Below are positions 5,353-29,745 of a stretch of DNA of 41,879 nt, piece by piece. The position numbers and the translations under genes are program-made. The DNA is taken from positions 1 to 41,879 of the forward strand of contig CARQUZ010000005.1 in assembly GCA_949051565.1 (NCBI GenBank), in the 5' to 3' direction. The notes beneath the pieces were generated by a model, which saw nothing but the letters and a program-made list of their open reading frames with translations, was not told the origin of the DNA and did not search any database. Source of the DNA: an uncultured Lachnospiraceae bacterium. GTDB lineage: Bacteria; Bacillota; Clostridia; Lachnospirales; Lachnospiraceae. The number at the start of each line of letters is the position of its first letter. Within the stretch, counting starts at the first letter, position 1.

Positions 5353-8300
5353 TTAGCGAAGCAAAACTGTCACAACTTCATATGGCTTTAATACAACATC
5401 AATCACATTTCCTGTTACAGTTGTCTCCTCCTGTGTCTCTTCTAGTAAATTACAGATATATGCTTTTTCAAATGGTGCATGCACTGTCAATTTTGTCTTA
5501 GTATATGAATTCTCTGACTCATACATACGAATGACTGTTCCATTTCCATCCTCTGCCTTTTTAATCGTCTCAAGAATGACATTTGCATGTGCAACAGATG
5601 CAAATGAGAATGTTTCCTTAGAGGCGGTTCCCAACTCAGCAACTAATGGCTGATTGAGCTTGTATGCTTCCTCTACAGTACCTGCCTGACGCCATCCTTC
5701 TGCATGTGGATAAAGTGCATAGGTAAAATCATGCTCTTCCTGGTCTGTAGTTGGATTGGGTTCTATACCAGATTTAATCAAAGTCAATGCCATATTGGAA
5801 TCCTTTACAGAATGTCCATACTTACAATCATTGAGTAGAGAAACTCCATAGTGGCCTTCTGAGAGATCCATCCATTTCTGTCCACAACTCTCAAAACGCG
5901 CCACATCCCAACTTGTATTTTGATGCGTTTTTCTAGTCAGATTTCCAAACTGTACATCAAAGGTTGCCTCATCTGTATGCACTGCTATCGGGAAATGTAC
6001 CTTTAATAGTGTCTGATGCTCTTTCCAGTCCACATGAGTCACAAACTCTATCCGACGGCTGTTCGCATAGAATATAATCTTCTGCTCGATTGTTGACTTA
6101 GATGCCTTGCGTGTTATCTCTAGCACCGCGCGCACAGGACCTACCTCTGTCCATTCCATATGCTCTACTTGATCCACATCCCAGAACTTCTCTGTATAGT
6201 AAATGTCAATATCCCAGTTGTCAAAATAAATAGGCTTATCCTCATACATGCGAATCAAATTTCCACGTTCTTTCTCCTGTATGATCTCCCTATCATTTTC
6301 CTTGTCATAAATGCTTGTAAACAGTCCCTGTTCATCCAGTTTTATGGTGTAGAATGGCGTTTCTAGTGCAAGGTTTCCAGTCAATACAAATGGGCAATCT
6401 GTATCTGTTGCCTTAGCAGCCGTAAATGATTTGTAACCCTTTGAAGGTACATTCTTCACGTATGCCACACTTCCGTCCTTTGTTTTCTGAACAGGATAGA
6501 TTGTTCCATTCTCATCCTGAAGAGCCTCTCCGTCAAAGTCTCCGAGATTGACAATGTCTTCTCTTTCTTTTCCTATTGTATTAAAGATCGTGATTGCATC
6601 TCCAGTCTGTGCGATTGCCTTTCTACGTTGTGTAGACAAATCTGCTATCTGCTCTGCAAGCTGGCTATACTCTTCCTTTGTCACATCATAAACTTCTTTG
6701 ATAGATGAACCTGGCAAAATATCATGGAACTGATTTAGCAGCACGACTCTCCACATTGCCTCTAGATCCTTTGTTGGATAGTCTACTGTCTGCTCTGCCA
6801 AAACAGATAGTAATTCCAGATCCATCAATCCCAGCTCGGATTTTCGATTAGAACGTTTGTTTCGTGCCATAGAGGTCAATGTCCCTCTGTGATACTCAAA
6901 GTAAAACTCACCTTCCCACACTGGAAGACGTCTACTTTGTCCAACACGTTCATTCAGCTCGTCAAAGAATGTGCGCGCAAACTCTTGGCGAACGGTCGGG
7001 ATACCTTTCACACCCTTTTCCATACGAATAGATGTCTCTAACATTTCTCTGGTTGGACCACCACCGCCATCTCCATAGCCATAAGAGATTAAGATATCAT
7101 TGTTGAGATCTTTATTTTGATAACGCATCCATCCACCCATAATAGCGTCTGGATGAAGCATGCCATTATATGTCGTGAAGAAATTCTTGATTGGTTGCTC
7201 CACGCCCAATGTGGTAATCAAATGTGTCAATACCTCTGATCCATCGATACCTCTCCACATCATTGTATCATATGGTATCTTATTAAACTGATTCCACGCA
7301 AGTTTGGTGGTCATAAAATAATCAATTCCACACTTTTTCATGATCTGTGGAAGTGCTCCCGAATAACCAAACACATCTGGCAACCACAAAATACGATTGT
7401 CCACACCAAACTCTTCGCGGAAAAAGCGCTTGCCATACATAAACTGGCGAACCAATGATTCTCCTGAGGTCAGATTGCAGTCTGCCTCCACCCACATACC
7501 ACCTTCTGGCTCCCAGCGCTGTTGTTCGATACGTTCTTTCACTTTCTCATAAAGGTCTGGGTAGCGCTCTTTCAAAAAGGCATAAAGCTGTGGTTGGCTT
7601 GACATAAACTTGTAATTGGGATATTCTTCCATCAGCTTTAATACTGTCGCAAAGCTACGTGCAACTTTTTCCCTTGTCTGCTCTACTGTCCACCACCATG
7701 CAACATCAATGTGTGTATGTCCAATACAAGTTGCAATCACATCCTTATATCCTGCCAAATCAGAATACAATGCCCGATCAATATAGTTAGACGCCTCTTC
7801 CATTGTAGAATAAAACGCATCCGAATATGGAGTTCTCAAATCCAGGAAATTCACTGTGGTATTCAAGATTTCCTGAATATCCTTTCGATTCTTATCGTCT
7901 TCCTCCATTCTAGAAAATGCTGCGAGTGGAACCCACAAATCATAGTACAACTTCTCGATTTTGTCGTCAATCTCACGCATTTCCACAATCAGATTAAACT
8001 CGTCATGCAACGTTCCAGTATAGGCTTGAAGTCCAATCTCCAAAACTTCCCCTTCTTTTGCTTGAGCGCGCAAAAAGACATCTTTGTGGTTCATATCAAT
8101 TCCTTGGATGGCTTCTCCGTTTACAAACAGTAAGAACTGTGGATTTTTCGCATCATCCCACTCGTCAATCTGTGTGCGTACATGAAGCCACATCCGTTTT
8201 CCATCTAGCTCTTTAGGCACTTGATATGTTGTCTTAAACCAGTAATGACGATCCTTTCCATACCAGTGCATATTTTTGCTATAAAAGTCTTGCCACGGTG

Positions 8301-16254: not shown

Positions 16255-16325
16255 GCAGATATAGTTCATTGGTAGAATGCTAGCTTCCCAAGCTGGAGAG
16301 GCGGGTTCGATTCCCGTTATCTGCT
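16255..16325 (+). tRNA. tRNA-Gly (anticodon CCC). CCA not encoded
   Basis: Manual cloverleaf: acceptor GCAGATA/TATCTGC, D-arm GTTC-ATTGGTA-GAAT, anticodon stem CTAGC/GCTGG with loop TTCCCAA, T-arm GCGGG-TTCGATT-CCCGT, discriminator T. Confidence 0.85.
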
Positions 16326-17712: not shown

Positions 17713-17845
17713 TATATTTCACACGAACTCCCATCTGCCTGCTTTGACAGGCGTACAAATCAAGATGCGTGAAATTTTATATTTCATGCTAACTCCCATC
17801 TGCACGCTTTTGCGGGCACTTTTATCAGGATGTGACAAATTTGTA
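17713..17845 (+). repeat. Intergenic repeat family 2 (two tandem, diverged copies). The unit is CTAACTCCCATCTGCCCGC-ATTA-GCGGGC...CAAATCAGGATG-TGTGAAATTATATATTTCACA
   Basis: Seen directly. The first hairpin shows compensatory changes between copies (GCCTGctttgaCAGGC versus GCCCGCattaGCGGGC). Confidence 0.8.
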
Positions 17846-17977
17846 TAGCAGACAACGCTCGCATTATTGAAAATTCTTTGATGGTTCAGCTTATCTCTTT
17901 GATGGTAATACTATCAAACACACAAAATATGGTGAAAGCCACTTTTTATTCAGTTCCTATCTCAATGGCAATCTCTA

Positions 17978-18766
17978 TCAATCCCACCAGAAAAACCACT
18001 TGCAATATTGTCTAAGAATATCTGCTAAACGACCAATTGTCTCCACTCCCTGATCGACAATATCCCTGCAAAACAGATACTGTTCTTTTGCAAGATGCAT
18101 AGCCTGTTCGCTGTCAACTGACTGTGGAAGTTCAAACTCCAACGTATCATATGCAATAACGGCTGGGACTGCACCATATTTTTCAAACCAATATTTTGCA
18201 ACAGACATCAAATCCTCTGTACCAGGACACTCATTCCAGCCGCCAAAAGGCACATAGGCGAACACTTCCCACGGATTTTTAACAGGAATTTCTGCCAAAA
18301 TAGTCGGTTTTGTTATATCAGAACTATAACTTCGATATCCTCTAAATGAAAGTTCTTCTTCTCCTTCACTTTCACTTTCTCCTTCACTTTCCATCTCACC
18401 AATCAGCCACTCGGGCCAATAATCCTCCTGATTACATTTTTCAAAAAACTCTGTAGTGTCTTTGATTGTGGCAGAAAGATTTTCTTTTCGATAGGCAGCC
18501 ACGCGCTCCATATCAAAACTACCATTTTTTGCCTCACTATCTACATTAAACCGCAAACTCTCCCACAAGATATCCTCCACCACAATCAAAACAGGAACAA
18601 AACCTTCTTGTATTCCGCGCTGTCTTGCTTTATTATATGCTTCTATGATGGTTTTGTCCTGTTTCATTGGCGGAAAATAGTCACACGAACAATTTAGGTA
18701 CTTGCTAAAATTGACCACCAACTCCGGTGTATTTGCATCAACATTGTTTAACATCTGTATTCCCAC
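17978..18766 (-). CDS. Hypothetical protein (DUF4253-like) with an internal acidic ESEGES/ESEGEE repeat
   Basis: ORF with RBS AAGGTGGG favouring the start at 18754 (MLNNV...). The family assignment is uncertain. Confidence 0.5.
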   Translation of the reverse strand: MGIQMLNNVDANTPELVVNFSKYLNCSCDYFPPMKQDKTIIEAYNKARQRGIQEGFVPVLIVVEDILWESLRFNVDSEAKNGSFDMERVAAYRKENLSATIKDTTEFFEKCNQEDYWPEWLIGEMESEGESESEGEEELSFRGYRSYSSDITKPTILAEIPVKNPWEVFAYVPFGGWNECPGTEDLMSVAKYWFEKYGAVPAVIAYDTLEFELPQSVDSEQAMHLAKEQYLFCRDIVDQGVETIGRLADILRQYCKWFFWWD

Positions 18767-18947
18767 CTTTCGCTGTTTTTGCCATTATACTATACCTAAA
18801 CAAATATTTCCAGTAAAGATCTATTAAGAAAAACTGAACCATTTATGAACAAAGAAATACAAACATACAATTTTTATATTTCGATAAGAATCTATGTTAT
18901 AGCAAACAAAAAACAGCCATTTTCAGGTTGTTTTTTGTTGTGTTCTT

Positions 18948-20132
18948 TTACAAATATTTCTTTAGCACATCCACCTTGTCAATCTTTTCCCAAGGCAAGT
19001 CAAGGTCATTGCGCCCAAAATGTCCATATGCTGCTGTCTGCTTGTATATTGGTCTTCTCAAATCCAACATCTTGATAATTCCAGCGGGTCTTAAATCGAA
19101 ATTTTCACGAATAATCTCAACTAGCTTCTCGCTGTCAATCTTGCCTGTTCCAAATGTATCGACATTGACAGAGGTCGGCTGCGCAACACCAATTGCATAA
19201 GAAAGTTGAATCTCACACTTGTCTGCAAGTCCTGCTGCCACAATGTTTTTTGCAACATAGCGCGCTGCATATGCACCGCTTCGATCTACTTTTGTACAAT
19301 CCTTTCCAGAGAATGCACCGCCGCCGTGACGCGCATACCCACCATAAGTATCCACAATAATCTTGCGTCCTGTAAGTCCTGCATCTCCATGTGGTCCACC
19401 AATAACAAAACGTCCTGTCGGATTAATATAGAACTTTGTATCTGCATCAATCAGCTCTGCTGGAAGAATCACATCAAATACATGCTTTTTGATATCCTCA
19501 TGAATTTGTTCCTGAGTCACATCTGGATCATGCTGTGTTGAGAGTACTACTGCCTCTAATCTCTTTGGTTTACCTTGCTCATCATACTCTACAGAAACCT
19601 GTGTCTTTCCATCTGGCCTTAAATACTGTAATGTGCCATTCTTGCGAACCTTTGTCAACTGCAACGCAAGCTTGTGTGCAAGTGCAATTGGATATGGCAT
19701 ATATTCTTCTGTCTCATTGGTTGCATATCCAAACATCATTCCTTGATCGCCAGCGCCAATAGCTTCGATCTGTTCATCACTCATCTCGATCTTTGCTTCA
19801 TATGCCTTGTCCACACCCATCGCAATATCGCCTGACTGTTCATCAATTGCTGTAAAGACTGCACAGGTATTTCCATCAAAACCATATTCTGACTTGTCAT
19901 AACCAATTTCCTTTACTGTGTCGCGCACAAGCTTTGGAATATCTACATACGCTTTGGTAGTAATCTCACCTGTCACCAACACAAATCCTGTACAAGTAGC
20001 TGTCTCACATGCCACGCGGCTCATAGGATCTTGCTCCATCAAAGCATCCAAAATCGCATCAGAAATCGCATCACATACTTTGTCAGGATGACCTTCTGTA
20101 ACAGATTCTGAAGTAAACAATAATTTCTCCAT
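18948..20132 (-). CDS. metK: S-adenosylmethionine synthetase
   Basis: Canonical MetK motifs ([16 protein letters not shown]...GGGAFSGKD). RBS AGGAGG. Confidence 0.95.
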
Positions 20133-20184
20133 TTGTATTCTTTCCTCCTATCAAATAATGACCTTTATCATTTTGTCCTCACAA

Positions 20185-20365
20185 CAAAACAATAGAAAAT
20201 CCGCTGTATTCTGGCAGAATAAGCGGATTGTATCAGTTCCTTGATAATCAAATCCTCTTATTGTTCGACCTATCTATAATAGTCCCGCTCAGGTTGGCAC
20301 CTTCCACATTGGGGTTGCCGTGGCTTCACAGATCCTTTGTATCTCCACCACTCTGAATAAGAGAT
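20185..20365 (-). ncRNA. SAM-I (S-box) riboswitch with terminator expression platform, in the metK leader
   Basis: Minus-strand aptamer from about 20362 to 20254. It has P1 CTCTTATT/AATAAGAG, GGTGGAGAT, GAAGCCACGGCAACC and GGTGCCAACCTGAGC. Terminator hairpin AATCCGCT...AGCGGATT (20197-20228) with a U-run follows, then the metK RBS. Confidence 0.85.
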
Positions 20366-20469
20366 TAGTATTCGTTCAATATTGAATTGTCATATCGCTT
20401 ATATCATATACCTATATTGTGTGCTTGTCAACTAGTAATATTCATTTCGCAATCAACAATCTCAACTTA

Positions 20470-21762
20470 TTATCCTACTTTGAGTTTAAAGCGCTGAATA
20501 TCTTTATCAGACTCTACCTTTTCAATCTGTGCGCCAAGGCTTTGTAGTTTTACATCAAAATCCTCATAACCGCGCTCTATATATCGGATATCATCCACTG
20601 TGCTAAAGCCTTCTGCTGTCAGACATGCCAACACAAGCGCTGCGCCCGCGCGAAGATCTGGCGCCGTTAAATTGGCACTAGTTAATCGCTCTATCCCTTC
20701 TATAATCGCTGTATTCCCTTCTACTTTAATATTAGACCCCATCTTTGCTAATTCATCTACATATTTGAATCGATTGTCAAAAATACTTTCTGTGACAATA
20801 CTAGTACCGCAAGCTGTAGCCAAAGACACTGCTACCTGTGGCTGCAAATCTGTGGGAAATCCTGGATAAGGCAATGTTTTGACATGGGTGTTTGTCAGAC
20901 GCTTTGACGCAGTCACACGTACAGCATCATCTGATTCCTCTACTTGACATCCCATCTCAATCAACTTGGCTGTCGTTGATTCCAAATGTTTAGGAATAAC
21001 ATTTTTGACGGTCACATCTCCCTTTGTAATTGCTGCGGCAAACATAAATGTACCCGCTTCGATCTGATCTGGAATAATAGAATATTCAGAGGAGTGAAGC
21101 TTTTTCACGCCTGAGATTCGAATCACATCTGTACCCGCACCTTTTATGTTGGCTCCCATCGAATTGAGAAAATTGGCTACATCTACTACATGTGGCTCTT
21201 TAGCCGCATTTTCAATCACGGTTTTCCCTTCTGCAAGCACGGCTGCCAGCATAATATTGATTGTGGCACCAACAGAAACAGTATCTAAATAAATATGTGT
21301 TCCTCTTAGCTGCTTTGCATCTGCAATAATTAATCCATGTTCAATCTTTACATTGGCACCGAGTGCCTTGAATCCTTTGATATGCAAATCAATCTTGCGA
21401 CTTCCAATATTACATCCACCCGGAAGTGCAACTTCTGCATGTCTATATTTTCCCAACAAAGCCCCCAACAAATAATAGGATGCTCTAATCTTCTTGATGT
21501 AATCATCCTCAATAACCAAGCCCGATATCATGGATGCATTAACCCGCACGGTATGTCTATCTGTTCTATATACAATGACTCCGATACTTTCCATCGCCTG
21601 AAGCAAGACATTGATATCTCTTACATCTGGTATATTTCCAATCGCTGTCATATCATCAGTCATAATTGCTGCAGCAAGCACTCCTAGCGCCGCATTTTTT
21701 GCACCGCCGATTTCAACTTCACCAACTAGAGGATTCCCCCCCTTAATTGCGTACTGTTCCAT
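20470..21762 (-). CDS. murA: UDP-N-acetylglucosamine 1-carboxyvinyltransferase
   Basis: MurA/EPSP-synthase fold motifs (IKGGNPLVGEVEIGGAKNAAL..., the active-site Cys region). The preferred start is MEQYAIKGG at 21762. The ORF extends to 21774. Confidence 0.9.
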   Translation of the reverse strand: MEQYAIKGGNPLVGEVEIGGAKNAALGVLAAAIMTDDMTAIGNIPDVRDINVLLQAMESIGVIVYRTDRHTVRVNASMISGLVIEDDYIKKIRASYYLLGALLGKYRHAEVALPGGCNIGSRKIDLHIKGFKALGANVKIEHGLIIADAKQLRGTHIYLDTVSVGATINIMLAAVLAEGKTVIENAAKEPHVVDVANFLNSMGANIKGAGTDVIRISGVKKLHSSEYSIIPDQIEAGTFMFAAAITKGDVTVKNVIPKHLESTTAKLIEMGCQVEESDDAVRVTASKRLTNTHVKTLPYPGFPTDLQPQVAVSLATACGTSIVTESIFDNRFKYVDELAKMGSNIKVEGNTAIIEGIERLTSANLTAPDLRAGAALVLACLTAEGFSTVDDIRYIERGYEDFDVKLQSLGAQIEKVESDKDIQRFKLKVG

Positions 21763-21963
21763 CGCCCACCTCATTATAAACCTTCCAATTCTTAATCAAC
21801 CCGCAAATTTGGACGAAAGCACAAATTGCCGATTGGCAAAGGCGCAAACACTTGTTTTTTTGCCTTTATCCCTCATACTGTTTTCCGATTATAAACCTTT
21901 TTTAAGCATTTGTAAACCATCATCTTGCCCATTCATACAGTGAAAGGAACCCAATTTTTGTAA

Positions 21964-22180
21964 TAACTCCCAATTATCTATGCTAACTCCCATCTGCCCG
22001 CATTAGCGGGCATACAAATCAGGATGTGTGAAATTATATATTTCACGCTAACTCCCATCTGCCCGCATTAGCGGGCGTACAAATCAGGATGTGTGAAATT
22101 ATATATTTCACACTAACTCCCATCTGCCCGCATTAGCGGGCATACAAATCAGGATGTGTGAAATTATATATTTCACACTA
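21964..22180 (+). repeat. Intergenic repeat family 2: three near-identical tandem 65-bp copies (21983-22047, 22048-22112, 22113-22177) plus partial flanking copies
   Basis: Seen directly. Each unit has two hairpins (GCCCGCattaGCGGGC and TGTGAAATtatatATTTCACA). There are no unique spacers between units. Confidence 0.9.
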
Positions 22181-22274
22181 ATTTGCCATACCACCAACAA
22201 CATCACGAATAAAGTTCGCATTGTTGAATTTGAATGACGACTGCAATCGGCATATTTCACATGAATAGCCGAAA

Positions 22275-23924
22275 CTAATTCAAATAATTTAAAGGATTCA
22301 CTGCATTTCCATTGATACGAATCTCAAAATGTAGATGTGGTCCTGTACTTCTTCCAGTATTTCCACTCAGCGCAATTCTCTCACCCTGTGAGACTGTTTG
22401 TCCTGTCTTAACCAAAACCTTGCTCAAATGTCCATACCTAGTCTGTCTACCGTCTGCATGATTGATATACACAGCATAGCCATAACCGCTCGCCCATCCC
22501 GCATGAACCACTGTTCCTGCATTGGAGGCGGTTACCGCCGTTCCAATTGGGACTGCCCAATCCACTCCCTTATGATAGGTAGAAGCCCCTTTCGTTGGCG
22601 CACTTCGCGCTCCGAATCCAGAACTAAGACGCCCACCTGAAATAGGTTTGATATAAGTTGGCGGCGTTTTCGTACCACGTTCCACAATTTTGGGAACAGC
22701 CTGCGCATACACTTCTTCCTTTAAAATTTCTCTGTCAATTTCCTGTCCATTTTTATATGTAATGATAGCGGCCACCCTGCGCCTGCCGGCTGATGGTTCC
22801 TGACGTGTGACTTTTTGTGTTGTGTACCAGTCATCGTTAGGAATATACTCTACTGGCACATCATAGTCTTCTATATAAACTTGCTCGTTCTTCCATAAAA
22901 TAGAAAGCTCTGGTTCTGGCACGGTCATCACAAGCTTCTGCCCCACACGAATAATAGAGCGCTCATCTTCCAGCTCATCATTGATTGCAATCAACTCATC
23001 CATTGGAATATTATTAGAAAGACTAATCTGTGAAAGTGTATCTCCTTGAACTACCTCGTATATTACTTGTACTTCCTGTTCCTTTGTCACAAGATCTACA
23101 GACTCTTCCACAGTATTGAGCTCATCTTCCAGCAAATACGCCTCCACCACCTCAATTTTTTCTGCGTATTCTATATCAGAAAGCACTGTCCCATACTCAT
23201 CAAAACTTTTTTCTACTTGCGGCTCCACCTGCATAAACATTTTATTGAGTTCAGCCTCAACTCCTGCCGCCATCTCAACCGAATCTTGTGCCTGTGTAGA
23301 ATCTGATTTTAGAGACACTACTGCTTCTAGTACATTCACTTCTCTATCACGATCAAGCTCCAAATGTACCTGATATTGTTTTTGTGTATCATAAGGTGCC
23401 AACGCTTGTTCTAGAAAAGCATAAACCTCCTCATAAGAGCGTAAATTTACTGACGTTTCATTCACTTTAACTGTATAAGAACGATGTAGCGTCTCGCGCA
23501 TACTCCCTCGCATTGCTGCTGCCATATTTTGTATAATATCGGGTGTACTATCTACAGTCGCCCACAGTCTCTCACTGCCCACTATCTCAAGCTGTGCATC
23601 CATAAACACAAGCTCACTACTGCCGCTATCTAAGACCGCCTTGCGTCGTGCGTCTGTTAGCATTGTATCCAACTGATCTGTCGATCCAATATGTCCTACT
23701 TCGACACCATTTAAAAACACTGTAAAAAAATTGTCTCCTGTATGCTCAAAAAACTGTATAGAAGGTAATAAAAAGATACAGACAATCACTGTGATGACCG
23801 CCGCCTCTATATAACACAATCTAAATCTTCTATAATAATGATGTATTTTCTTCATTTTATCTATGCCTCTGCTTTGTATTGCGTTCATTCTTAGCTCCAT
23901 CTGCTCTGTCCATAGATCGCACAA
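22275..23924 (-). CDS. Membrane-anchored M23 family metallopeptidase with a LysM domain
   Basis: N-terminal TM helix. LysM (GDTLSQISLSNNIPMDELIAINDEL). A C-terminal M23 domain with HxxxD and HLH (HKGVDWAVPIGT...GPHLHFEIR). The exact start is uncertain because several in-frame ATGs have weak RBSs. Confidence 0.8.
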   Translation of the reverse strand: MCDLWTEQMELRMNAIQSRGIDKMKKIHHYYRRFRLCYIEAAVITVIVCIFLLPSIQFFEHTGDNFFTVFLNGVEVGHIGSTDQLDTMLTDARRKAVLDSGSSELVFMDAQLEIVGSERLWATVDSTPDIIQNMAAAMRGSMRETLHRSYTVKVNETSVNLRSYEEVYAFLEQALAPYDTQKQYQVHLELDRDREVNVLEAVVSLKSDSTQAQDSVEMAAGVEAELNKMFMQVEPQVEKSFDEYGTVLSDIEYAEKIEVVEAYLLEDELNTVEESVDLVTKEQEVQVIYEVVQGDTLSQISLSNNIPMDELIAINDELEDERSIIRVGQKLVMTVPEPELSILWKNEQVYIEDYDVPVEYIPNDDWYTTQKVTRQEPSAGRRRVAAIITYKNGQEIDREILKEEVYAQAVPKIVERGTKTPPTYIKPISGGRLSSGFGARSAPTKGASTYHKGVDWAVPIGTAVTASNAGTVVHAGWASGYGYAVYINHADGRQTRYGHLSKVLVKTGQTVSQGERIALSGNTGRSTGPHLHFEIRINGNAVNPLNYLN

Positions 23925-23985
23925 AAATTAGACAGATAGGACTATTTTACCAGCCATTTGCAATATTGTAAAGAAAATGAATGAT

Positions 23986-24552
23986 TCAACGCTTCTTTTG
24001 TATGCTATAACCAAACTTCCCGATCTGCCTGCCAAGGCCAAAGTAATCCCCGTGACTATACACAATTGGCAATGCATCTTGCAAGCAAAAACGTCCTTTT
24101 TCATCCATATAGCGCTCTTCTACATGTACAGCTTCCACTTGTGCAAGAAACAAATCGTGTGATCCCATTGTCTCCACTCTTGTCACTCTACATTCTATGT
24201 TTACAGGACTCTCAGCTATGTATGGCACAGCCACTTTTTCTGATGATACAGGTGTCAATTTCATTTCTTTCCACTTGTTCACATCTTTTCCACTCATAAC
24301 TCCACAATAATCTGTAGCATAGGCTAATTCCTCTGTGGTAAGATTGATAACAAATTCTTTTGTCTCCATTAACATATGATGTGAATAGCGCGAAGGACGC
24401 ACAGATATACTTACCATTGGTGGATTAGTACAAATTGTACCTGCCCACGCCACCGTAATAATATTGGTGCTACCATCTTTTCCTGCTACACTCACCAAGA
24501 CAACTGGAAGTGGATAGAGCATATTCCCAGGCTTAAACGAAATCTTTGCCAT
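23986..24552 (-). CDS. Flavin reductase-like (FMN-binding split-barrel) protein
   Basis: Flavin_Reduct-like motifs (YPLPVVLVS...G..NIITVAW.G). 188 aa. RBS GGGGGA. Confidence 0.7.
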   Translation of the reverse strand: MAKISFKPGNMLYPLPVVLVSVAGKDGSTNIITVAWAGTICTNPPMVSISVRPSRYSHHMLMETKEFVINLTTEELAYATDYCGVMSGKDVNKWKEMKLTPVSSEKVAVPYIAESPVNIECRVTRVETMGSHDLFLAQVEAVHVEERYMDEKGRFCLQDALPIVYSHGDYFGLGRQIGKFGYSIQKKR

Positions 24553-24617
24553 ATTAATCCCCCATGCCGCCTTTGGCGGCTCAAATAGAAATGAAAAACG
24601 CAGTCTTTTGCGTTTTT

Positions 24618-24712
24618 CCTGTGTGAAATTTTATATTTCACACTAACTCCCATCTGCCCGCTTTAGCGGGCACTCCAATCAGGATGGGTGAAATTTTATA
24701 TTTCACATTAAT
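24618..24712 (+). repeat. Intergenic repeat family 2 (one full unit plus flanking partials)
   Basis: TGTGTGAAATTTTATATTTCACA-CTAACTCCCATCTGCCCGCtttaGCGGGC...TGAAATTTTATATTTCACA. Confidence 0.85.
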
Positions 24713-24988
24713 CCCATATCCTTTTTCTGCAATGTATACCCCAAAAAATACAAATCATACCAAACTGCCTAAAACACAAAAATTTTCTGTTATAATCAAA
24801 CAGTAGACAATACAAAACCTTTTGTCTACAAGGGTTTTGTTCTAAAGCATAATCCTATAACCAAATCCATCTCGAGAACATTTTGTCAATTTATTTGCAA
24901 CACAAATGTCATTTGCATTCGCAAATGAATTTGTGTTGTGAATAATAAACAAATGATCTTAATTGATTGACAACTGATCGCGTAAAGT

Positions 24989-25040
24989 TTTATTATGAAA
25001 GTAAAGAACAACTTTCATAGTAAGATGGCCATTCGGCCTG
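24989..25040 (+). repeat. Intergenic repeat family 1 copy (hairpin TATGAAAGT...ACTTTCATA + GATGGCCATTCGGCC), with a degenerate partial copy at 25075-25107
   Basis: Seen directly. Same orientation as the array at 1391-1625. Confidence 0.8.
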
Positions 25041-25154
25041 AAATGATATAAAACATTCCAGATATTGTATGATGCTACTTTATTATGAAAGATAAAGAAT
25101 GATAACATAACATGTAAATCAATTTGTATATATTGGTGATTAAGGAGGAGAATA

Positions 25155-25499
25155 ATGCCATTTATTAACTCAAGGGTAAGTGTCACAATGACCAAAGCCC
25201 AGAAAACTTCCATAAAAGAAAAACTAGGAAAAGCCATTTCCATCATTCCAGGAAAATCTGAGCAGTGGCTCATGATAGAATTTGCCGATGCTTGTGATTT
25301 ATATTTTCAGGGTGAAAATACACAACCTTGTGCTTTTATAGAAGTCAAAGTATTTGGTGGTATTCCTGAATACTGTCTAGAAAATTTAACAGCCGTGATT
25401 AGTGAAATCTACGAGACAGATTTACAGCTTGCAAAGGATCATATTTATATAAAATATGAACCCATTTCTGAGTGGGGCTGGAATGGCCAAAATTTCTAG
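25155..25499 (+). CDS. MIF (macrophage migration inhibitory factor)-like tautomerase superfamily protein
   Basis: N-terminal Met-Pro (catalytic Pro1) and ~114 aa. Blocks align to MIF (PCAFIEVKVFGGI; IYIKYEPISEWGWNGQNF versus [20 protein letters not shown]). RBS AAGGAGG. Confidence 0.7.
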   Translation: MPFINSRVSVTMTKAQKTSIKEKLGKAISIIPGKSEQWLMIEFADACDLYFQGENTQPCAFIEVKVFGGIPEYCLENLTAVISEIYETDLQLAKDHIYIKYEPISEWGWNGQNF

Positions 25500-25563
25500 T
25501 GTGTTTTATTTATTTTCTATGCTATTTTCTCATGATTTTTGTAGTTGCAATACCATTTATGTG

Positions 25564-25599
25564 AAATAGTTCAGCTATTTTGTAGCTGAACTATTTTTC
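25564..25599. terminator. Bidirectional terminator between the convergent MIF-like gene and the P-loop kinase gene
   Basis: 13-bp stem AAATAGTTCAGCT/AGCTGAACTATTT with a T-run. Confidence 0.7.
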
Positions 25600-26166
25600 T
25601 TGTTTTCTATTCCGTAATTCTTTTTGTATTTGATATTCCTCTATAATGCGTGTTGTATTATTCTCCAAGGTGTCTGCACCATCAATAAAAAGGACCTTAC
25701 AAGGCAGTGTAGACGCCCATTGGAGATGCGTTTGCAGATTAGGCGAAGCATCACTTGTATCATAGCGCATCGCACTCTCAATAAACTTTTGATGCCCCTC
25801 GTATAGATCACCGCCTTCTAAAATCCGTTCTCCAAAACGATTTATTGCCCTTTGTTGTATCCGCTCAAATCGAACAGCGCTGTCTGCCGTAATATGAATA
25901 GCTAAATCAAACAATGGATCAAATGGATCATGAAAACTATCCATTGATCCTGCCATGACAAAATGTTCGTATTCTGATATATCGTGCAACAATCTGCCTG
26001 CTTTTTCTTCTTTAGAATACATCATTGTATATGGACGTTGTGTGTCCTTTCTCCAGATATAATCATCTATATCAAAATATGGATATCCCAATTGCTTGGC
26101 TACAAGCTTTCCTAGTGTTGTCTTTCCAGCTCCCGCCGAACCAAATATAATAATTCCTCTTGACAT
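25591..26166 (-). CDS. P-loop NTPase (AAA_33 / shikimate-kinase-like small kinase)
   Basis: Walker A GSAGAGKTT close to the N-terminus. RBS GGAG 5 nt before the ATG at 26166. The ORF track's 26232 start lacks an RBS. Confidence 0.7.
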   Translation of the reverse strand: MSRGIIIFGSAGAGKTTLGKLVAKQLGYPYFDIDDYIWRKDTQRPYTMMYSKEEKAGRLLHDISEYEHFVMAGSMDSFHDPFDPLFDLAIHITADSAVRFERIQQRAINRFGERILEGGDLYEGHQKFIESAMRYDTSDASPNLQTHLQWASTLPCKVLFIDGADTLENNTTRIIEEYQIQKELRNRKQEK

Positions 26167-26569
26167 TGTTTCTCCATTTCTGCGCAACTTTTTCGTCTGA
26201 TAATTTGTACACACCACCTTTTTTGCTTTCACACCCTTCTAACAATTGATTTTTATTGTATCATATATATTTGATGCATCCAACATAGAATTGATTCATT
26301 ATAAAAATTTGATTCTTCGACTTATCTTTTTCATTTTTCAATTCTCTATCTTTCTCATTTTTAATCTGCTCTTTATGTGCTAAGAACATATACGATCGAT
26401 TGAAAGTTGACTTATTTCATTTGTCTTAATAAACATATTTATGGTGAATCCCAACTCATAAATCCAAAAGAAAAGTTCCTCTATCTCATGTGCTCTTATA
26501 TTGCAAATAGTGTATATCAATGATATAATAACCACAGAAAAAATGGAGATATAAAGGATGGAATGATAT

Positions 26570-27811
26570 ATGAAAAAAAGAATGTGGTGCTTGCTTTTGA
26601 GTATTTTATGTACCACAACGCTTATGGGATGTGGTACACAAGAGAAAACAGACTTTGAAAATACAGAAAATACAGAATCCGAAAAAGTTGAATTGGTTGT
26701 CTGGGGAGCACAGGAAGATACAGAACTGATGAATCAGATCATCCAAAGTTTTCAGACACATTATCAGGGACAGGCTGATTTTCAAATTTCATTCGAAGTA
26801 CAAGGAGAATCGCAGTGTAAAAATGTATTGCTTGGTGGGCTGGAAGACGGTGCTGATGTATTTACTTTCGCAGACGATCAGTTAAGTGCTCTCGCCGCCG
26901 CTGGAGCATTGGAGCCTATTGATGACGCTGACACAATCCGTCAAAACAATCTTTCAAGCGCCGTCGAAGCTGCTACAATAAACAATCAGCTATACGCCTA
27001 TCCATTGACGGCAGATAACGGCTACTTCTTGTATTACAACAAACAATATATTACAGAAGAGCAAGTTAAAACACTAGACGGCATATTACAAGCAGCGGCC
27101 ACTCACAATAAATTATTTACTATGGATTGGTCTTCAGCATGGTATGTATATTCTTTTTTTGGGAATACAGGACTTGAAGTTGGACTTAACGACGACGGAA
27201 TCACTAATTATTGTACATGGAATCAGGCCGATGGTGACATTCGGGGGATTGACGTAGCGCGATCAATGCTCCAGATTGCAGGAAATCCAGGATTTTCCAG
27301 TTGTACAGACGAAGAATTTCTTAATGGAGTAAAGAATGGAACAATAATTGCAGGCGTCAGCGGTGTATGGAATTCTGTTCCGATCAATGAGGTCTGGGGT
27401 GACAATACGGGGGCTACTAAATTGCCCACTTATACTTGTAATGGCCGCCAAGTACAGATGGCTTCTTTTTCAGGTTGCAAACTAATCGGGGTAAATGCTT
27501 ATTCTGACCATCCCCAATGGGCATCCAAGCTTGCCGAATGGATCACTAACGAAGAAAACCAACAACTCCGCTTTGAAATGCGCGGTCAAGGACCATCAAA
27601 CATCACTGTCGCAGGCTCAACACAAGTCAAGCAATCACCAGCGATCACTGCTCTTTTAGAGCAATCCGAATTTTCTCAGCTTCAGCGCATAGGCGGCAAA
27701 TTCTGGGACCCTGTCTCAAAATTTGCAGAAAATATGGCGGCTGGAAATCCTTCTGGTCAAAACTTACAAAAGCAATTAGATGAGATGGCAGAACAGATTT
27801 CTGCAAGGTAG
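26570..27811 (+). CDS. Lipoprotein extracellular solute-binding protein (family 1, sugar-type SBP)
   Basis: Signal peptide plus lipobox LMGCGT and ~410 aa. It immediately precedes an MCP gene. Confidence 0.75.
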   Translation: MKKRMWCLLLSILCTTTLMGCGTQEKTDFENTENTESEKVELVVWGAQEDTELMNQIIQSFQTHYQGQADFQISFEVQGESQCKNVLLGGLEDGADVFTFADDQLSALAAAGALEPIDDADTIRQNNLSSAVEAATINNQLYAYPLTADNGYFLYYNKQYITEEQVKTLDGILQAAATHNKLFTMDWSSAWYVYSFFGNTGLEVGLNDDGITNYCTWNQADGDIRGIDVARSMLQIAGNPGFSSCTDEEFLNGVKNGTIIAGVSGVWNSVPINEVWGDNTGATKLPTYTCNGRQVQMASFSGCKLIGVNAYSDHPQWASKLAEWITNEENQQLRFEMRGQGPSNITVAGSTQVKQSPAITALLEQSEFSQLQRIGGKFWDPVSKFAENMAAGNPSGQNLQKQLDEMAEQISAR

Positions 27812-27841
27812 ATATATATTGAAAGGATTTGTTAATGTAAG

Positions 27842-29428
27842 ATGAAGAAAAAACTCACCATACAACAACGCCTGATACTTCCGATCATCCTTTTGGGGAT
27901 TGTGGCATTGATTTCCAGTGCCTTATCGGTTTTTAGTATCAATAATGTAAATTCCAATGCTTCTAAAATCGTAGATATCTATATGGTAGGTTCAGAAACA
28001 TTGCAAAATATTCGTCATACCACCACAAATATTCATAAGATGGCACTATCCCATATTGTTGCAACAGACTATACCACCATGATTACTGTTGTAGCACAGA
28101 TCAAGGATGAAGAAAAAACATTGGAGACATATTTGCAGGAATACAAGAACTATGTCACAGAAGACGAAGAAGTGATCTATGCACAACTTTTAGAAAATTA
28201 TGACTCTTTTAAACATGCTCTAGTTTATCTTGTATGTGCAAGTGCAGACAGCAAGACTCAAGATGCCTATGCTTGTGCCAATGGTGACGTTGCTCACTTC
28301 GGTTCTGCCATAGCAAACAATGCTAATGAGTTATATGCGGCTGTAAGTACGCGGACAGCCAATGCACGGCAAAAGCTTTTGATCGTCTATATGATCTCAC
28401 TGATTATTGCTGCTGCATCTATTGTCACCTGCTTCCTATTGGTTCTTGCAACTATTCGAATCATAAAAAAATATGTGATAACCCCTATCAAAGACACAGT
28501 GAACACTCTTCAAGAAAGTTCACAAAAGCTTGACACCGTGACAGGCGAAGTACTCAAACACACTCGCACATCAGGAAAAAGTGTCAAGAGACTTTCTTCT
28601 CTTACAGGCTCTTTGTCTATGGCAATCCAAAAAGTGGCAAATAATGCGACAATTATTAATGATCGTGCCACAACTATCAAAGAGGATGTCCATGATATGG
28701 CAGAAGAATGTAACACCATCATGGAGTATTCCTCTGCTATGAAAATACGAGCAACCGAAATGGAATCAGCAGCACAGACAAACACAGAAGCCATTCAAAC
28801 AAAAACCACGGATATTCTAAAAGTATTAAAAGAAGCAATTGAAAATAGTAAGAGTGTAGATCAGGTAAACAAACTCACAAAAGATATTGTAGAGATCTCA
28901 TCAACCACCAATCTGATTGCTCTTAATGCTTCCATAGAAGCTATGCGCGCTGGAGAAGCTGGAAAGGGCTTTGCCGTCGTTGCAAGACAAATTAAATCCT
29001 TGGCAAACTCTTGCAGTGAAACTGCTGGACGTATCCAAGAAGTCAATCAGATTGTCACAAACGCAGTACATAATCTATCAAAACATTCTCAGGATATGGC
29101 TGACTATCTAAGCGAAACTATTTTGGCAGAGTTTCAGGAATTTGTCCATTCTGGAAGACAGTACAAAGAGGATGCTGATTATATAAAAGAAATGATCGAC
29201 GCATTTAGCAACAGAACTGACCACCTTAGAAACTCTATGATCGAGATAGCCGCTTCCATTGAAAGCATTACCAAAGCCATTGATGATGGTGCCACAGGAA
29301 TCACTGGAGTTGCGGGCAATACAGAGAGCTTAGTCAAGGATATGGCGGATATTACAAATCGTATGGATACAAACAGAGAGATCGTAGAAGAACTAAAAAA
29401 GCAAATGGAAGTATTTGCAGATTTTTAA
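27842..29428 (+). CDS. Methyl-accepting chemotaxis protein (two TM segments, periplasmic ligand-binding region)
   Basis: MCP signalling-domain motif [33 protein letters not shown]1 near residue 15 and TM2 near residue 185. Confidence 0.85.
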
Positions 29429-29493
29429 GAAAACTACTCCTACTCAAAATTAAACAATATTTACATATTCCTATTTTTTATACTCTTTGCTAA

Positions 29494-29517
29494 AAAACGC
29501 CTAATTCGGGCGTTTTT
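29494..29517 (+). terminator. Rho-independent terminator after the MCP gene
   Basis: Stem AAAACGCC/GGCGTTTT, loop TAATTCG, then a T-run. Confidence 0.75.
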
Positions 29518-29521
29518 CGGC

Positions 29522-29663
29522 ATAAAGCTTAGTACTTCTTTGTGAAATAACCTTTGTTGCAAGCAGTTAGAAGTACTTTTCATGATGTGAGACTTAGAGT
29601 TTCTCTGTGAAACAGTCTTTGCTGCAAGCAGAAACTACCACAGGTAGTTAGAAACTCTTCTCA
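29522..29663 (+). repeat. Repeat family 3: two tandem ~65-80-nt structured units upstream of the MVP gene. Long inverted repeats (AGTACTTCT...AGAAGTACT and TGTGAGAcTTAGAGTTTCT...AGAAACTCTTCTCACA) enclose a conserved TGTGAAA...(T)GCTGCAAGCAG core. A family-2 fragment follows at 29666-29723
   Basis: Seen directly. The 35-bp left arm CATGATGTGAGACTTAGAGTTTCTCTGTGAAACAG (29581-29615) recurs at 32207-32242. Confidence 0.75.
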
Positions 29664-29745
29664 CACTTACTACCATCTGCCCGCTTTAGCGGGCACTCAA
29701 ATCAAGAGGGGGAAATCTCTCATTACAAGAAAGGAGTCGAAAACA

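Follow-up and report, generated by a model that had tools for sequence, protein, structure and literature searches.

A dispersed intergenic repeat family of Lachnospiraceae that probably acts as a portable hairpin-plus-ribosome-binding-site cassette

The window analysed here, a 41,879-nt stretch of DNA from an uncultured Lachnospiraceae bacterium (contig CARQUZ010000005.1), carries a short intergenic repeat near 17.7, 22.0, 24.6, 29.67 and 34.7 kb. An earlier note had described the first four loci, and the repeat there is real: a covariance model finds 8 units, all on one strand, with 0 expected by chance. The core AACTCCCATCTGCCCGC-N4-GCGGGCA has 6 matches with at most 3 mismatches in the window, all on the + strand (0.00 expected from shuffles), and the palindrome TGTGAAAT-N5-ATTTCACA occurs 5 times versus 0.05 expected. 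Single units fold much more stably than shuffles, with z about –5 to –6.6 on either strand. The reference unit (22113–22183, minus strand; covariance model 91 bits, fold z –5.6) heads a tandem array of three 65-nt units that lies between an M23-peptidase gene (stop codon at 22275) and the promoter of murA. Its hairpin 2 occupies + strand positions 22157–22177, its hairpin 1 22125–22142 and the complement of its Shine-Dalgarno (SD) sequence, CTCCC, 22118–22122. The second and third units, also on the minus strand, span 22048–22112 and 21983–22047 (covariance-model matches 22054–22112 and 21983–22053), and TRF reports 3.1 tandem copies of the 65-nt unit at 21983–22181 with 97% matches. A partial remnant after the array (21960–21982, minus strand; family D1, 80% copy) reads CATAGATAATTGGGAGTTATTAC on the gene strand, which is a second GGGAGTTA.

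At 17.7 kb, a complete unit (17724–17794, minus strand; 77 bits) lies 30 nt 5′ of the start codon (ATG, 17691) of an alpha/beta-hydrolase gene with an SD of its own, and the unit adjoins a degenerate one in which hairpin 2 has decayed (17795–17846, minus strand; 32 bits). The complete unit at 24.6 kb (24643–24713; 87 bits) is single. It is followed by an additional copy of hairpin 2 (24620–24642), a terminator-like hairpin consisting of GAAAAACGCAAAAGACTGCGTTTTTC and a T run (24593–24618), and a hairpin 1 plus SD variant, GCCGCCAAAGGCGGC-ATGGGGGATTAAT (24553–24590), immediately 5′ of the ATG (24552) of a flavin-reductase gene, all on the minus strand. The terminator-like hairpin is part of a 172-nt composite (24550–24720) with 98% identity to contig L094, where another gene adjoins; likeness to the conspecific contigs L200, L201 and L204 ends at 24720, the 5′ edge of the unit. 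The unit at 29666–29735 (minus strand; 55 bits) has a degenerate hairpin 2. It lies amid repeats of another family and is antisense to both of its + strand neighbour genes.

The earlier claim of a single orientation for every copy is wrong. Two more units, both without hairpin 2, occupy the opposite strand at 34690–34781, before the plus-strand gene cheR. The unit at 34739–34781 (plus strand; 39.5 bits) has a GCCTGC/GTAGGC hairpin 1, with one G·U pair on the transcribed strand, and an AGGAG (34772–34776) ending 5 nt upstream of the cheR GTG (34782); the degenerate upstream unit, TCACCATCTTGATTTATATATGCCGATTGTTCAGGCAGATAGGAGTTAT (34690–34738, plus strand), was missed by the covariance model and read directly from the sequence. 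A promoter-like site of the Che operon, TTGACA-17-TATTAT (34371–34400, plus strand), is conserved in an alignment of three related species, which places the 34.7-kb units within the cheR 5′ UTR. Since the 17.7-, 22.0- and 24.6-kb copies are surrounded by minus-strand genes and the 34.7-kb copies directly precede a plus-strand gene, all four loci share the same polarity relative to genes. The 29.67-kb copy is the only one in the window that is antisense to its genes, and the earlier wording that copies keep their orientation however the adjacent genes run was therefore misleading.

In a full unit (63–66 nt) the order on the gene strand is (SD-like flank)-RTG-AAA..hairpin 2..-AUCCUGAUUUGUA-hairpin 1-AGAUGGGAGUUAG-N-start codon. 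There is also a minimal, roughly 45-nt form without hairpin 2, which is dispensable in those minimal units that abut genes. The GGGAG of the unit is a Shine-Dalgarno sequence. That the unit ends, on the gene strand, in an SD at start-codon distance, and that many genes use it, is a point absent from the earlier note. Hairpin 1 is a GC-rich stem of 7 bp with a tetraloop; it is 97% paired, and its two inner pairs exchange between CG, UA, GC and AU. In hairpin 2 the outer pair is TA in 36, CG in 29 and GC in 10 cases, the second pair GC in 92, AT in 6 and TA in 5, and the loop varies from 3 to 14 nt. In the sequences compared, compensatory changes thus keep both stems, as anticipated by the earlier suggestion of selection on a folded structure. 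Its hairpin 1 example of GCCTG/CAGGC versus GCCCGC/GCGGGC is compensatory, but the further variant GCACGC...GCGGGC, from the degenerate unit at 17795–17846, contains an A·G mismatch. Array copies are head-to-tail with no spacers, which rules out CRISPR, again in agreement with that note. A short ORF starts in hairpin 2. In the window these mini-ORFs have 22 codons and every TGA overlaps the following GTG; for example, the GTG of the second unit's mini-ORF (22111–22043) overlaps the TGA of the preceding one. Outside the window, the TGA in the linker lies 24 nt from the start in 56 of 94 distinct units, and 59 of the 94 have it in frame. Mini-ORF length varies from 2 to 22 codons, with the stop usually inside the unit (8 codons).

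Beyond the window, copies are oriented with their flanking genes. The earlier note had proposed testing copies for a strand bias relative to gene or replication direction, and between co-directional gene pairs 82 arrays run with the genes versus 5 against (p = 2.5e-19; gene calls at the compared loci are ORF heuristics rather than annotation). The gene downstream of the array is on the same strand in 115 cases and on the opposite strand in 18, and arrays that abut no gene divide 41 with versus 5 against. An ORF of at least 100 aa starts 2–5 nt after GGGAGTT, mostly at 3 nt, in 50 of 135 arrays (37%), compared to 3.1% at random positions (p = 6e-40) and 8.0% after any GGGAG (p = 5e-21). The start codon of these 50 ORFs is ATG in 38 and GTG in 12, and their products are mutually unrelated, with no common function. 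The GGGAG of the element is the sole SD before a long gene in about a third of arrays, including that of cysS, the normally essential gene for cysteinyl-tRNA synthetase. No gene start adjoins the remaining arrays (about 63%), among them three window loci; in some of these a terminator or promoter comes next.

The element is absent from the same sites in related species, as seen at murA, cheR and cysS. In the congeneric contig L120 the murA promoter and synteny are kept and the array is absent. The cheR UTR of relatives is 50–100 nt long and ends in CTGAGGAGGCAGAA-GTG, compared to about 380 nt in the window, where it is filled with repeats and ends in hairpin 1-AGATAGGAGTTTCA-GTG. At cysS, the spacer of relatives measures 24 nt and contains GGAGG, and L035, a carrier belonging to the window's species, has GATTTAAAT-hairpin 1-AGATGGGAGTTAAAAA-ATG there and lacks any further SD. 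At both genes the carriers have lost the native GGAGG site. This replacement, rather than displacement, of the native SD is at odds with simple cut-and-paste insertion.

The earlier note had also suggested a search of related Lachnospiraceae genomes, and a scan of species-representative genomes places the family at 117 loci or more in at least 37 Lachnospiraceae-type assemblies; 2 additional matches among those listed, in Streptomyces coding DNA, are due to chance. No copies were found in IMG/VR, phage and plasmid collections. Units are 85% identical within genomes versus 73% between genomes, and units from the same genome are non-independent samples. Loop sequences are alike inside one genome and different across genomes, which argues for copying rather than independent selection. 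The murA array itself has 1, 3 or 4 units in conspecific contigs that are 99.9% identical to the window, with identical flanks.

Our preferred reading, to which we give a probability of about 0.7, is that this dispersed, tandemly amplifiable intergenic repeat family is a portable hairpin-plus-ribosome-binding-site cassette. Copying would carry the element into 5′ UTRs and transcribed spacers, and the SD that it supplies would be the reason why gene starts tolerate or favour it. From the sequence comparisons we infer roles for the units at the RNA level: hairpin 1, immediately 5′ of the SD, may shield the ribosome-binding site and the 5′ end of the mRNA, and the short ORF from hairpin 2 may let ribosomes read through the unit and then restart, as proposed for MIRUs.

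It is unlikely, though conceivable, that a single-strand DNA transposon (an IS200/IS605-type palindrome-associated element or a REP moved by a RAYT) left the units behind as non-autonomous relics; its enzyme would recognise the two hairpins, the replication fork would determine the orientation of the units, and the presence of an SD and a mini-ORF would be incidental. Two different subterminal hairpins and the absence of terminal inverted repeats and of a variable target duplication would fit such an origin. The left flank of the unit nearly always ends in (T/A)TAG and the unit itself in TTAG, so that insertion after TTAG would build head-to-tail arrays. Neither strand has an excess of wobble pairs; the stems could thus be maintained for a step at the DNA level, mobilisation for instance, and not for an RNA function. 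For copies that abut no gene, replication direction, which the earlier note had raised, may also play a part: given a leading-strand bias of about 85%, their 41 to 5 division would likewise be expected (p = 0.29). The antisense 29.67-kb copy is oriented like the copies to its left and lies in a block of near-zero GC skew, and the skew of the window becomes positive only at around 34 kb, shortly ahead of the copies on the other strand. Against this, the antisense copies L016 and L021 run against the local GC skew too, and two gene-oriented copies sit in zero or negative skew. A coarse search of 1.68 Mb of DNA for Y1-transposase motifs was negative, neither inverted pairs (REPINs) nor alternating clusters of the BIME type were observed, and rows of identical tandem units are atypical of such transposons. 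The exact SD spacing in 37% of arrays and the replaced native SDs also speak against a relic.

A cis-regulatory leader RNA, in which a shared protein, small RNA or ligand site hides or exposes the SD across a regulon, is improbable. In its favour, the element stands immediately 5′ of many start codons, over 90% of copies from the various species conserve its single-stranded parts, with AUCCUGAUU lying outside the search pattern, and in the predicted fold the SD region is paired to CCCAUC or CUGAUUU; these linker–SD pairings, however, show no covariation. The downstream genes lack a shared function, most copies are away from start codons, the tandem arrays are near-identical and vary among strains, the loops follow the genome, and no Rfam family matches the unit even at E ≤ 10. 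The Rfam result, the diverse flanking genes and the lack of a consistent promoter or terminator flanking the units also speak against a family of small structured RNA genes, which the earlier note had entertained. The arrays are very unlikely to be small-RNA genes such as a sponge of repeated AUCAGGAUG (GGA) motifs like CsrB/RsmZ for CsrA: the + strand of each unit has CAGGAUG between two hairpins, presumably a candidate match to the CsrA consensus, the organism has chemotaxis genes and a terminator follows the 24.6-kb unit on the gene strand, but in about 90% of copies the motif is on the strand opposite to the transcription around it, conserved flanking signals are absent and the TATAAT within hairpin 2 is confined to this species. 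Just as doubtful are binding-site clusters in which hairpin 2 is a palindromic operator, since its TGTGA...TCACA half-sites, which we take to resemble CRP/FNR- or Rex-type operators, are 8–11 nt apart instead of 4–6, its loop length is variable, it is dispensable in gene-abutting units, and compensatory arm changes are expected of a stem rather than of two consensus-bound half-sites.

The family is apparently undescribed to date; it is not BOX, ERIC, REP/BIME, MITE, CRISPR or any Rfam family. REPs, which lie mostly 3′ of genes, form inverted pairs or alternating clusters accompanied by a RAYT gene. The earlier comparison to REP/BIME elements holds for dispersed, short, GC-rich extragenic hairpins with compensatory stem changes, but membership does not, as the copies are strictly head-to-tail, gene-polar, often 5′ of genes and seen with no RAYT signature. 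By analogy, the repeat would work like the interspersed repetitive units of mycobacteria (MIRUs; Supply et al. 1997) and resembles BOX and ERIC, while belonging to none of them. As MIRUs are summarised in PMC12548453, they and the present element are short units of tens of nucleotides in direct tandem intergenic arrays, oriented with flanking genes, located at gene starts and varying in copy number among strains, and each has a small ORF inside, on the strand of the gene; the GTGA overlap of the window ORFs equals the –4 spacing of MIRUs. Sequence and host are unrelated (Actinobacteria versus Lachnospiraceae). MIRUs overlap the start codon of the gene, whereas the present element has its own SD, mostly 3 nt from the start after GGGAGTT, two covarying hairpins and a mini-ORF that usually stops within the unit, and it replaces the native SD rather than bypassing it.

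BOX of Streptococcus pneumoniae is likewise a modular small interspersed repeat of a Firmicute, with a tandem, strain-variable internal module (boxB), predicted stable stem-loops, co-transcription with neighbour genes and clustering with other repeat families (PMC3049150). Its boxA and boxC ends are IS-linked terminal inverted repeats, of which none were seen here, it is restricted to pneumococcus and close relatives whereas the present family spans many genera, and its encoded ORFs lack a good SD (PMC3049150), the most conserved part of our element. The enterobacterial ERIC/IRU and neisserial Correia elements, as summarised in PMC3049150, are also transcribed intergenic repeats with orientation-dependent effects and alter the stability or processing of host mRNAs; Correia elements duplicate TA and supply promoters or RNase III sites. 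Those elements are single long imperfect palindromes of 100–150 nt with terminal inverted repeats, in contrast to units of 45–65 nt with two short separate hairpins, direct tandem arrays and an SD. Finally, the synthetic bicistronic design (BCD) of translation-initiation cassettes, mentioned in PMC12548453, also places a short leader ORF with an SD ahead of the SD of the gene, making initiation less dependent on local mRNA context. That design is engineered, with the second SD inside the leader ORF and overlapping stop and start, whereas in the putatively analogous Lachnospiraceae unit the stop is usually about 40 nt upstream, with a hairpin between.

The intergenic repeat reported in the earlier note is real, and it is more than could be seen by reading the window: a family-wide, polar cassette of hairpins plus a Shine-Dalgarno (SD) sequence that varies in copy number and is often the ribosome-binding site (RBS) of the gene that follows. 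The core of hairpin 1 occurs six times in the window at up to three mismatches and not once in 100 shuffles, and the hairpin 2 palindrome occurs five times compared to 0.05 expected. TRF delineates a 65-nt unit in 3.1 copies at 97% identity, and a covariance model trained on 104 units finds eight units on one strand at 17.7, 22.0, 24.6 and 29.67 kb. The consensus given in the earlier note, reverse-complemented to the gene strand, reads TGTGAAAT-ATATA-ATTTCACA CATCCTGATTTGTA TGCCCGC-TAAT-GCGGGCA GATGGGAGTTAG. The unit consists of two distinct hairpins and conserved single-stranded parts, and GATGGGAGTTAG at its end is an SD sequence (GGGAG). Units are 45–66 nt long, and their ends are nearly invariant, (T/A)TAG followed by RTGAAA and GGGAGTTAG-N, the same everywhere and with no variable duplication. 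Arrays of several units are all head-to-tail direct, with a period of 63–66 nt (two units in 27 arrays, three in 6, four in 1 and six in 1), and 5–6 nt after the GGGAG part comes the next unit's hairpin 2, which begins with GTG.

The compensatory stem changes that had been claimed for the first hairpin are found in both hairpins, but one of the cited examples, GCACGC...GCGGGC, contains an A.G mismatch and is not compensatory. In hairpin 1, 97% of cells are paired and the two inner pairs exchange between C-G, U-A, G-C and A-U; the other five pairs are fixed by the way the copies were found, since the search pattern varied only at the two inner pairs. The outermost pair of hairpin 2 is T-A in 36 units, C-G in 29 and G-C in 10, its second pair is G-C in 92, A-T in 6 and T-A in 5, and the length of its loop ranges from 3 to 14 nt across genomes. 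The linker AUCCUGAUU is more than 90% conserved although it lies outside the search pattern. Two outer anti-SD stems pairing the linker with the SD region, CCCAUC/GAUGGG and CUGAUUU/GGGAGUUAG, are conserved in sequence with zero covariation and were rejected. Wobble pairs are equally frequent on both strands, with no asymmetry, and the stems may therefore be maintained at the level of either RNA or DNA.

The SD sequence of the element is used at the starts of genes. An ORF of at least 100 codons begins 2–5 nt after GGGAGTT in 50 of 135 assessable arrays (37%), compared to 3.1% at random positions and 8.0% after any GGGAG in the same test. The offset is 3 nt in 37 of these 50 starts, 38 of which are ATG and 12 GTG. 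The 50 downstream proteins are unrelated; ABC transporters, Ddl-, MurF-, FabF- and ArgJ-like enzymes, CysS, regulators and membrane proteins are among them. On the upstream side, in 25 cases, another long ORF terminates no more than 100 nt away, and the element then constitutes the entire inter-cistron spacer, sometimes as just the ~45-nt minimal form GATTTGNAT-hairpin 1-AGATGGGAGTTAGN, which lacks hairpin 2.

At two genes the native site can be compared with its replacement. The che promoter TTGACAAAGA...TATYAT (34371–34400 in the window) is common to three related species, in which the cheR leader is 50–100 nt long and ends in CTGAGGAGGCAGAA-GTG. The leader in the window is ~380 nt long, filled with repeats, and ends in hairpin 1-AGATAGGAGTTTCA-GTG. 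Relatives of cysS have a 24-nt spacer, ATACATACGGAGGTTTTGATAGAA-ATG, and cysS of the mouse-gut MAG MGBC139783 is preceded by GGTACATACCTAAGAAGATTTAAATGCCCGCTGAGGCGGGCAGATGGGAGTTAAAAA-ATG. In both element-bearing genes the native GGAGG is lost and the SD of the element is the sole one remaining. Because cysteinyl-tRNA synthetase is normally essential, the sequence argues strongly that the element's SD at cysS is functional. At element-bearing starts (for example the comparison loci L030, L055 and L107) an ATG within AGATGGGAGTT is in frame with the true start 12 nt downstream, so that gene callers may extend ORFs into the element and, like ORF finders, add a spurious four-residue MGV(S). This extension (MGVS) did not serve as a marker of element-bearing cysS, as the 477-aa homologues begin with MTK or MTN. 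Between the che promoter and the family-2 units, the expanded cheR leader also holds three 54–66-nt repeats (TTTGCRGAGYRGATGTTTTTCTTTGTAAGATGA) at 34494–34640.

The earlier note held that all copies share one orientation regardless of neighboring genes, and neither part of this statement stands. Two units without hairpin 2 lie on the other strand at 34690–34781, the second ending 5 nt before the cheR GTG. Minus-strand genes surround the 17.7-, 22.0- and 24.6-kb copies, and the gene that follows the 34.7-kb copies is on the plus strand. Polarity relative to transcription is therefore identical at these four loci, and antisense only at 29.67 kb. Family-wide, with ORFs of at least 100 aa as gene proxies, the downstream gene shares the strand of the element in 115 arrays and lies opposite to it in 18. 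Between co-directional genes 82 arrays run with the genes and 5 against (p = 2.5e-19). After removal of the arrays that abut a start, 41 run with the genes and 5 against, which is still far from random and is no different from a leading-strand preference (p = 0.29) at ~85% of genes on the leading strand, our own estimate for such genomes. Local GC skew as a means of splitting replication from transcription gave a handful of informative cases and exceptions to both rules, and the antisense 29.67-kb copy sits in a block of near-zero skew (25–34 kb). Copies used as RBSs are tied directly to genes; for the others, the polarity may come from transcription or from replication.

A scan of one genome per bacterial species with the pattern AACTCCCATCTGCNNGCNNNNGCNNGCA gave at least 119 stretches. 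Among the matches listed, at least 117 stretches lie in at least 37 Lachnospiraceae-type assemblies, comprising mouse and human gut MAGs, Acetatifactor, Anaerocolumna, Lachnoclostridium phytofermentans, Parablautia and Robinsoniella; the remaining two, in Streptomyces coding DNA, were dismissed as chance. Searches of viral contigs, phage genomes and plasmids gave zero copies. Several observations indicate that the units multiply by copying. Mean unit identity is 85% within one genome versus 73% across genomes, and the hairpin 2 loop is a signature specific to each genome. The array upstream of murA contains 1, 3 or 4 units in conspecific metagenome contigs with identical flanks; these contigs are 99.9% identical to the window and correspond at 100% over 2.7 kb to MGBC139783, which carries the label of an uncultured Lachnospiraceae bacterium and so confirms that the window belongs to this family. 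The family is also polymorphic for insertion: in the congeneric locus L120, with 78% nucleotide identity in genes, the M23-peptidase/murA synteny and the murA promoter are kept and the array is absent. In a metagenome scan of 80 murA loci L120 was the only one usefully close, and none carried the element save for one possible minimal copy (L132).

A 172-nt composite at 24550–24720 consists of a unit, a terminator-like hairpin and a second hairpin-plus-SD. It recurs at 6951–7122 in L094, a contig of MGBC139783, and at 2542–2713 in the comparison contig L200, and it joins three gene combinations, one in the window, one in L200/L201/L204 and one in MGBC139783. Similarity between the window and conspecific contigs breaks exactly at the edges of the composite. 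This shuffling of flanks reflects either recombination between dispersed copies or mis-joining of short reads, the repeat being longer than the k-mer. Arrays are likely break or mis-join points in metagenome assemblies.

Many units contain a small ORF. Hairpin 2 opens with an RTG placed at SD distance from the preceding GGGAG or, where a unit comes first in its array, from an SD-like flank. Of 94 distinct units, whose counts are not independent because the units are related by descent, 59 have the RTG in frame with the TGA of CCTGATT and 56 have a distance of exactly 24 nt between the two, giving an ORF of 8 codons. Differences in hairpin 2 loop length are offset by differences in spacer length. 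In the species of the window the distance is 25 nt and the ORF has 22 codons (VKYIISHILICMPANAGRWELV), its TGA overlapping the next GTG as GTGA. The window shows this overlap between successive units, as do 9 of 11 units whose ORF has 22 codons. The junction between unit and gene consists of an SD plus spacer, with no overlap of stop and start, and the peptide is not conserved. The pattern is suggestive of ribosomes that would read through the array and restart.

Among known systems, the nearest functional parallel by analogy appears to be the mycobacterial MIRU. MIRU-type repeats are direct tandem intergenic units of 40–100 bp, oriented with genes and variable in number (VNTR), with an ORF whose stop overlaps the start of the gene (–4). 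Family-2 units are likewise tandem, intergenic, oriented with flanking genes and strain-variable in copy number, but host phylum and base composition differ, and we treat the family as an analogue rather than a member. A recent review presents MIRUs as apparently mobile, inserting at start codons in such a way that the gene is coupled to an internal ORF (PMC12548453, which cites Supply et al. 1997). Family-2 units are often joined to the GTGAGAAGTACTTCTAAC hairpin family or to terminator-like hairpins starting with GTGA(A/G)AA. BOX-like elements have an A-Bn-C layout, in which the terminal modules are distinct and the internal ones vary in number. The variable unit number is present in family 2, but a fixed pair of end modules was not seen. 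Like BOX, the family has a tandem internal module that varies between strains and clusters with other repeat families, and orientation-dependent effects on host mRNAs are a feature of ERIC and Correia elements (PMC3049150). The open-access literature searched yielded no paper on Lachnospiraceae intergenic repeats, nor was the motif printed in a relevant context.

The comparison with REP/BIME made in the earlier note did not hold up. REP/BIME elements are built on a single imperfect palindrome of 20–40 nt, lie mostly 3' of genes and form inverted pairs or clusters of alternating orientation; the family-2 unit has two hairpins, and 37% of its arrays sit directly against a gene's 5' end. We do not assign the family to REP/BIME, because its arrays are head-to-tail only, with zero inverted arrangements, and because a crude regular expression for the Y1 N-terminal motif of a mobilizing transposase (RAYT) had zero matches in the 1.68 Mb of fetched loci. 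The unit is not a MITE in the usual sense either, since no inverted repeats bound it and its ends are identical everywhere; its inverted repeats are internal, in the form of the two hairpins, and variable target-site duplications are absent. At the gathering threshold, Rfam 15 matches only a SAM riboswitch and a tRNA in the window, and at E ≤ 10 the repeat regions give chance-level matches only, the best being Yfr1 with 21 bits against a cut-off of 38. A promoter was rejected because the TATAAT of hairpin 2 is specific to the species of the window and the loops differ in other genomes; a consensus scan did not call it. The sequence after hairpin 1 is AGAUGGGAG and that after hairpin 2 is CAUCCUGA, so that a U run follows neither and the unit is not an intrinsic terminator; a terminator scan called only a separate hairpin at 24593–24618 and one decayed unit, on the antisense strand. 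The units abut directly without spacers and, as the earlier note stated, are not CRISPR.

One reading would be that a self-propagating translation-initiation cassette, with a hairpin-shielded SD and an optional coupled leader mini-ORF, has rewritten the RBSs and leaders of many unrelated Lachnospiraceae genes, including essential ones. We regard this as tentative, with a probability of roughly one in four. The data establish the repeat family, its polarity, its use as an SD and its polymorphism for insertion; the roles ascribed to the hairpins and the mini-ORF, and the mode of spread, are inferred. Bicistronic RBS insulators, which are engineered, would have a natural counterpart in such a cassette. 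Since the native SD is replaced precisely at start codons, it might move by an undescribed route. All cassette-bearing genes would share one cis sequence, and a factor recognizing the invariant AUCCUGAUU / AGAUGGGAG could place them under common control.

Lachnospiraceae are the main butyrate-producing family of the mammalian gut and dominate its microbiota. Small interspersed repeats have been studied in detail in proteobacteria, streptococci and mycobacteria. Family 2 is unusual in being kept across many genera, in being strictly polar, and in having as its most conserved part a working SD that replaces the native one (cysS, cheR). If the cassette sets or buffers translation, it could provide a natural RBS part for anaerobes that are hard to engineer and be a source of expression differences between strains. 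Arrays could also act as strain-typing markers because their copy number varies between strains.

Other repeat families are present in the window. A second hairpin-type family (GTGAGAAGAGTTTCTAAC...) occupies 29520–29665, adjoining the 29.67-kb unit, and 32214–32242; its GTGAGACTTAGAGTTTCTCTGTGAAACAG is 100% identical at the two sites, and a module of this type directly follows family-2 units in five comparison loci (L042, L054, L070, L079 and L098). A third family at 1379–1632 has tandem units of 70–82 nt with the palindrome CTATGAAAGT-N-ACTTTCATAG, and a related copy at 24985–25022. A 60-nt unit with the palindrome AATTTGTGC...GCACAAATT occurs twice at 75–194, with an inverted partial copy at 21796–21827 in the murA leader, and its GCACAAATTTGCC motif adjoins family-2 units in L004, L011 and L093. 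In the MAG S29_Bin8 (L007, L014, L022, L072, L101 and L108) a long hairpin, (C/G)(A/G)TGAGAAATAGGCC-N4-GGCCTATTTCTCA, often comes after the units; the corresponding hairpin in MGBC139783 (L032 and L071) is GTGAAAAAAGTCTG-N5-CAGACTTTTTTCA. Both resemble a hairpin 2 that has been lengthened into a terminator-like stem.

The window derives from a Firmicute chromosome and has ~40% GC. It carries an N-glycan utilization cluster (GH85, GH38, GH130 and an ABC sugar transporter), metK behind a SAM riboswitch, a murA-like gene, an M23 peptidase, mnmG and a che operon. A DUF4253 protein had no record on exact-protein look-up. The first ~26.6 kb have their genes on the minus strand, the rest on the plus strand. 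Up to 25 kb the GC skew is strongly negative; it is about zero between 25 and 34 kb, and past 34 kb it is positive, while gene direction flips at ~26.5 kb. The skew change at 25000–34000 may mark an origin-like switch, or else a block that was inverted or acquired; mnmG (gidA) lies at 32328–34247, and dnaA is absent and no clear DnaA boxes were seen within 25000–34000. The SAM riboswitch (67.8 bits) is at 20255–20363 on the minus strand, upstream of metK, and a single tRNA-Gly(CCC) is at 16255–16325 on the plus strand, with neighboring genes on the other strand. An 821-aa protein encoded at 29746–32211, with the shoulder domain of major vault protein and a weak match to SPFH/Band 7, is an unusual relative, in a bacterium, of the eukaryotic vault proteins. 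Its final codons hold the fragment CTAACTCCCATGA (32171–32185), a motif that terminates many family-2 arrays on the plus strand of the window, corresponding to their 5' edge on the gene strand.
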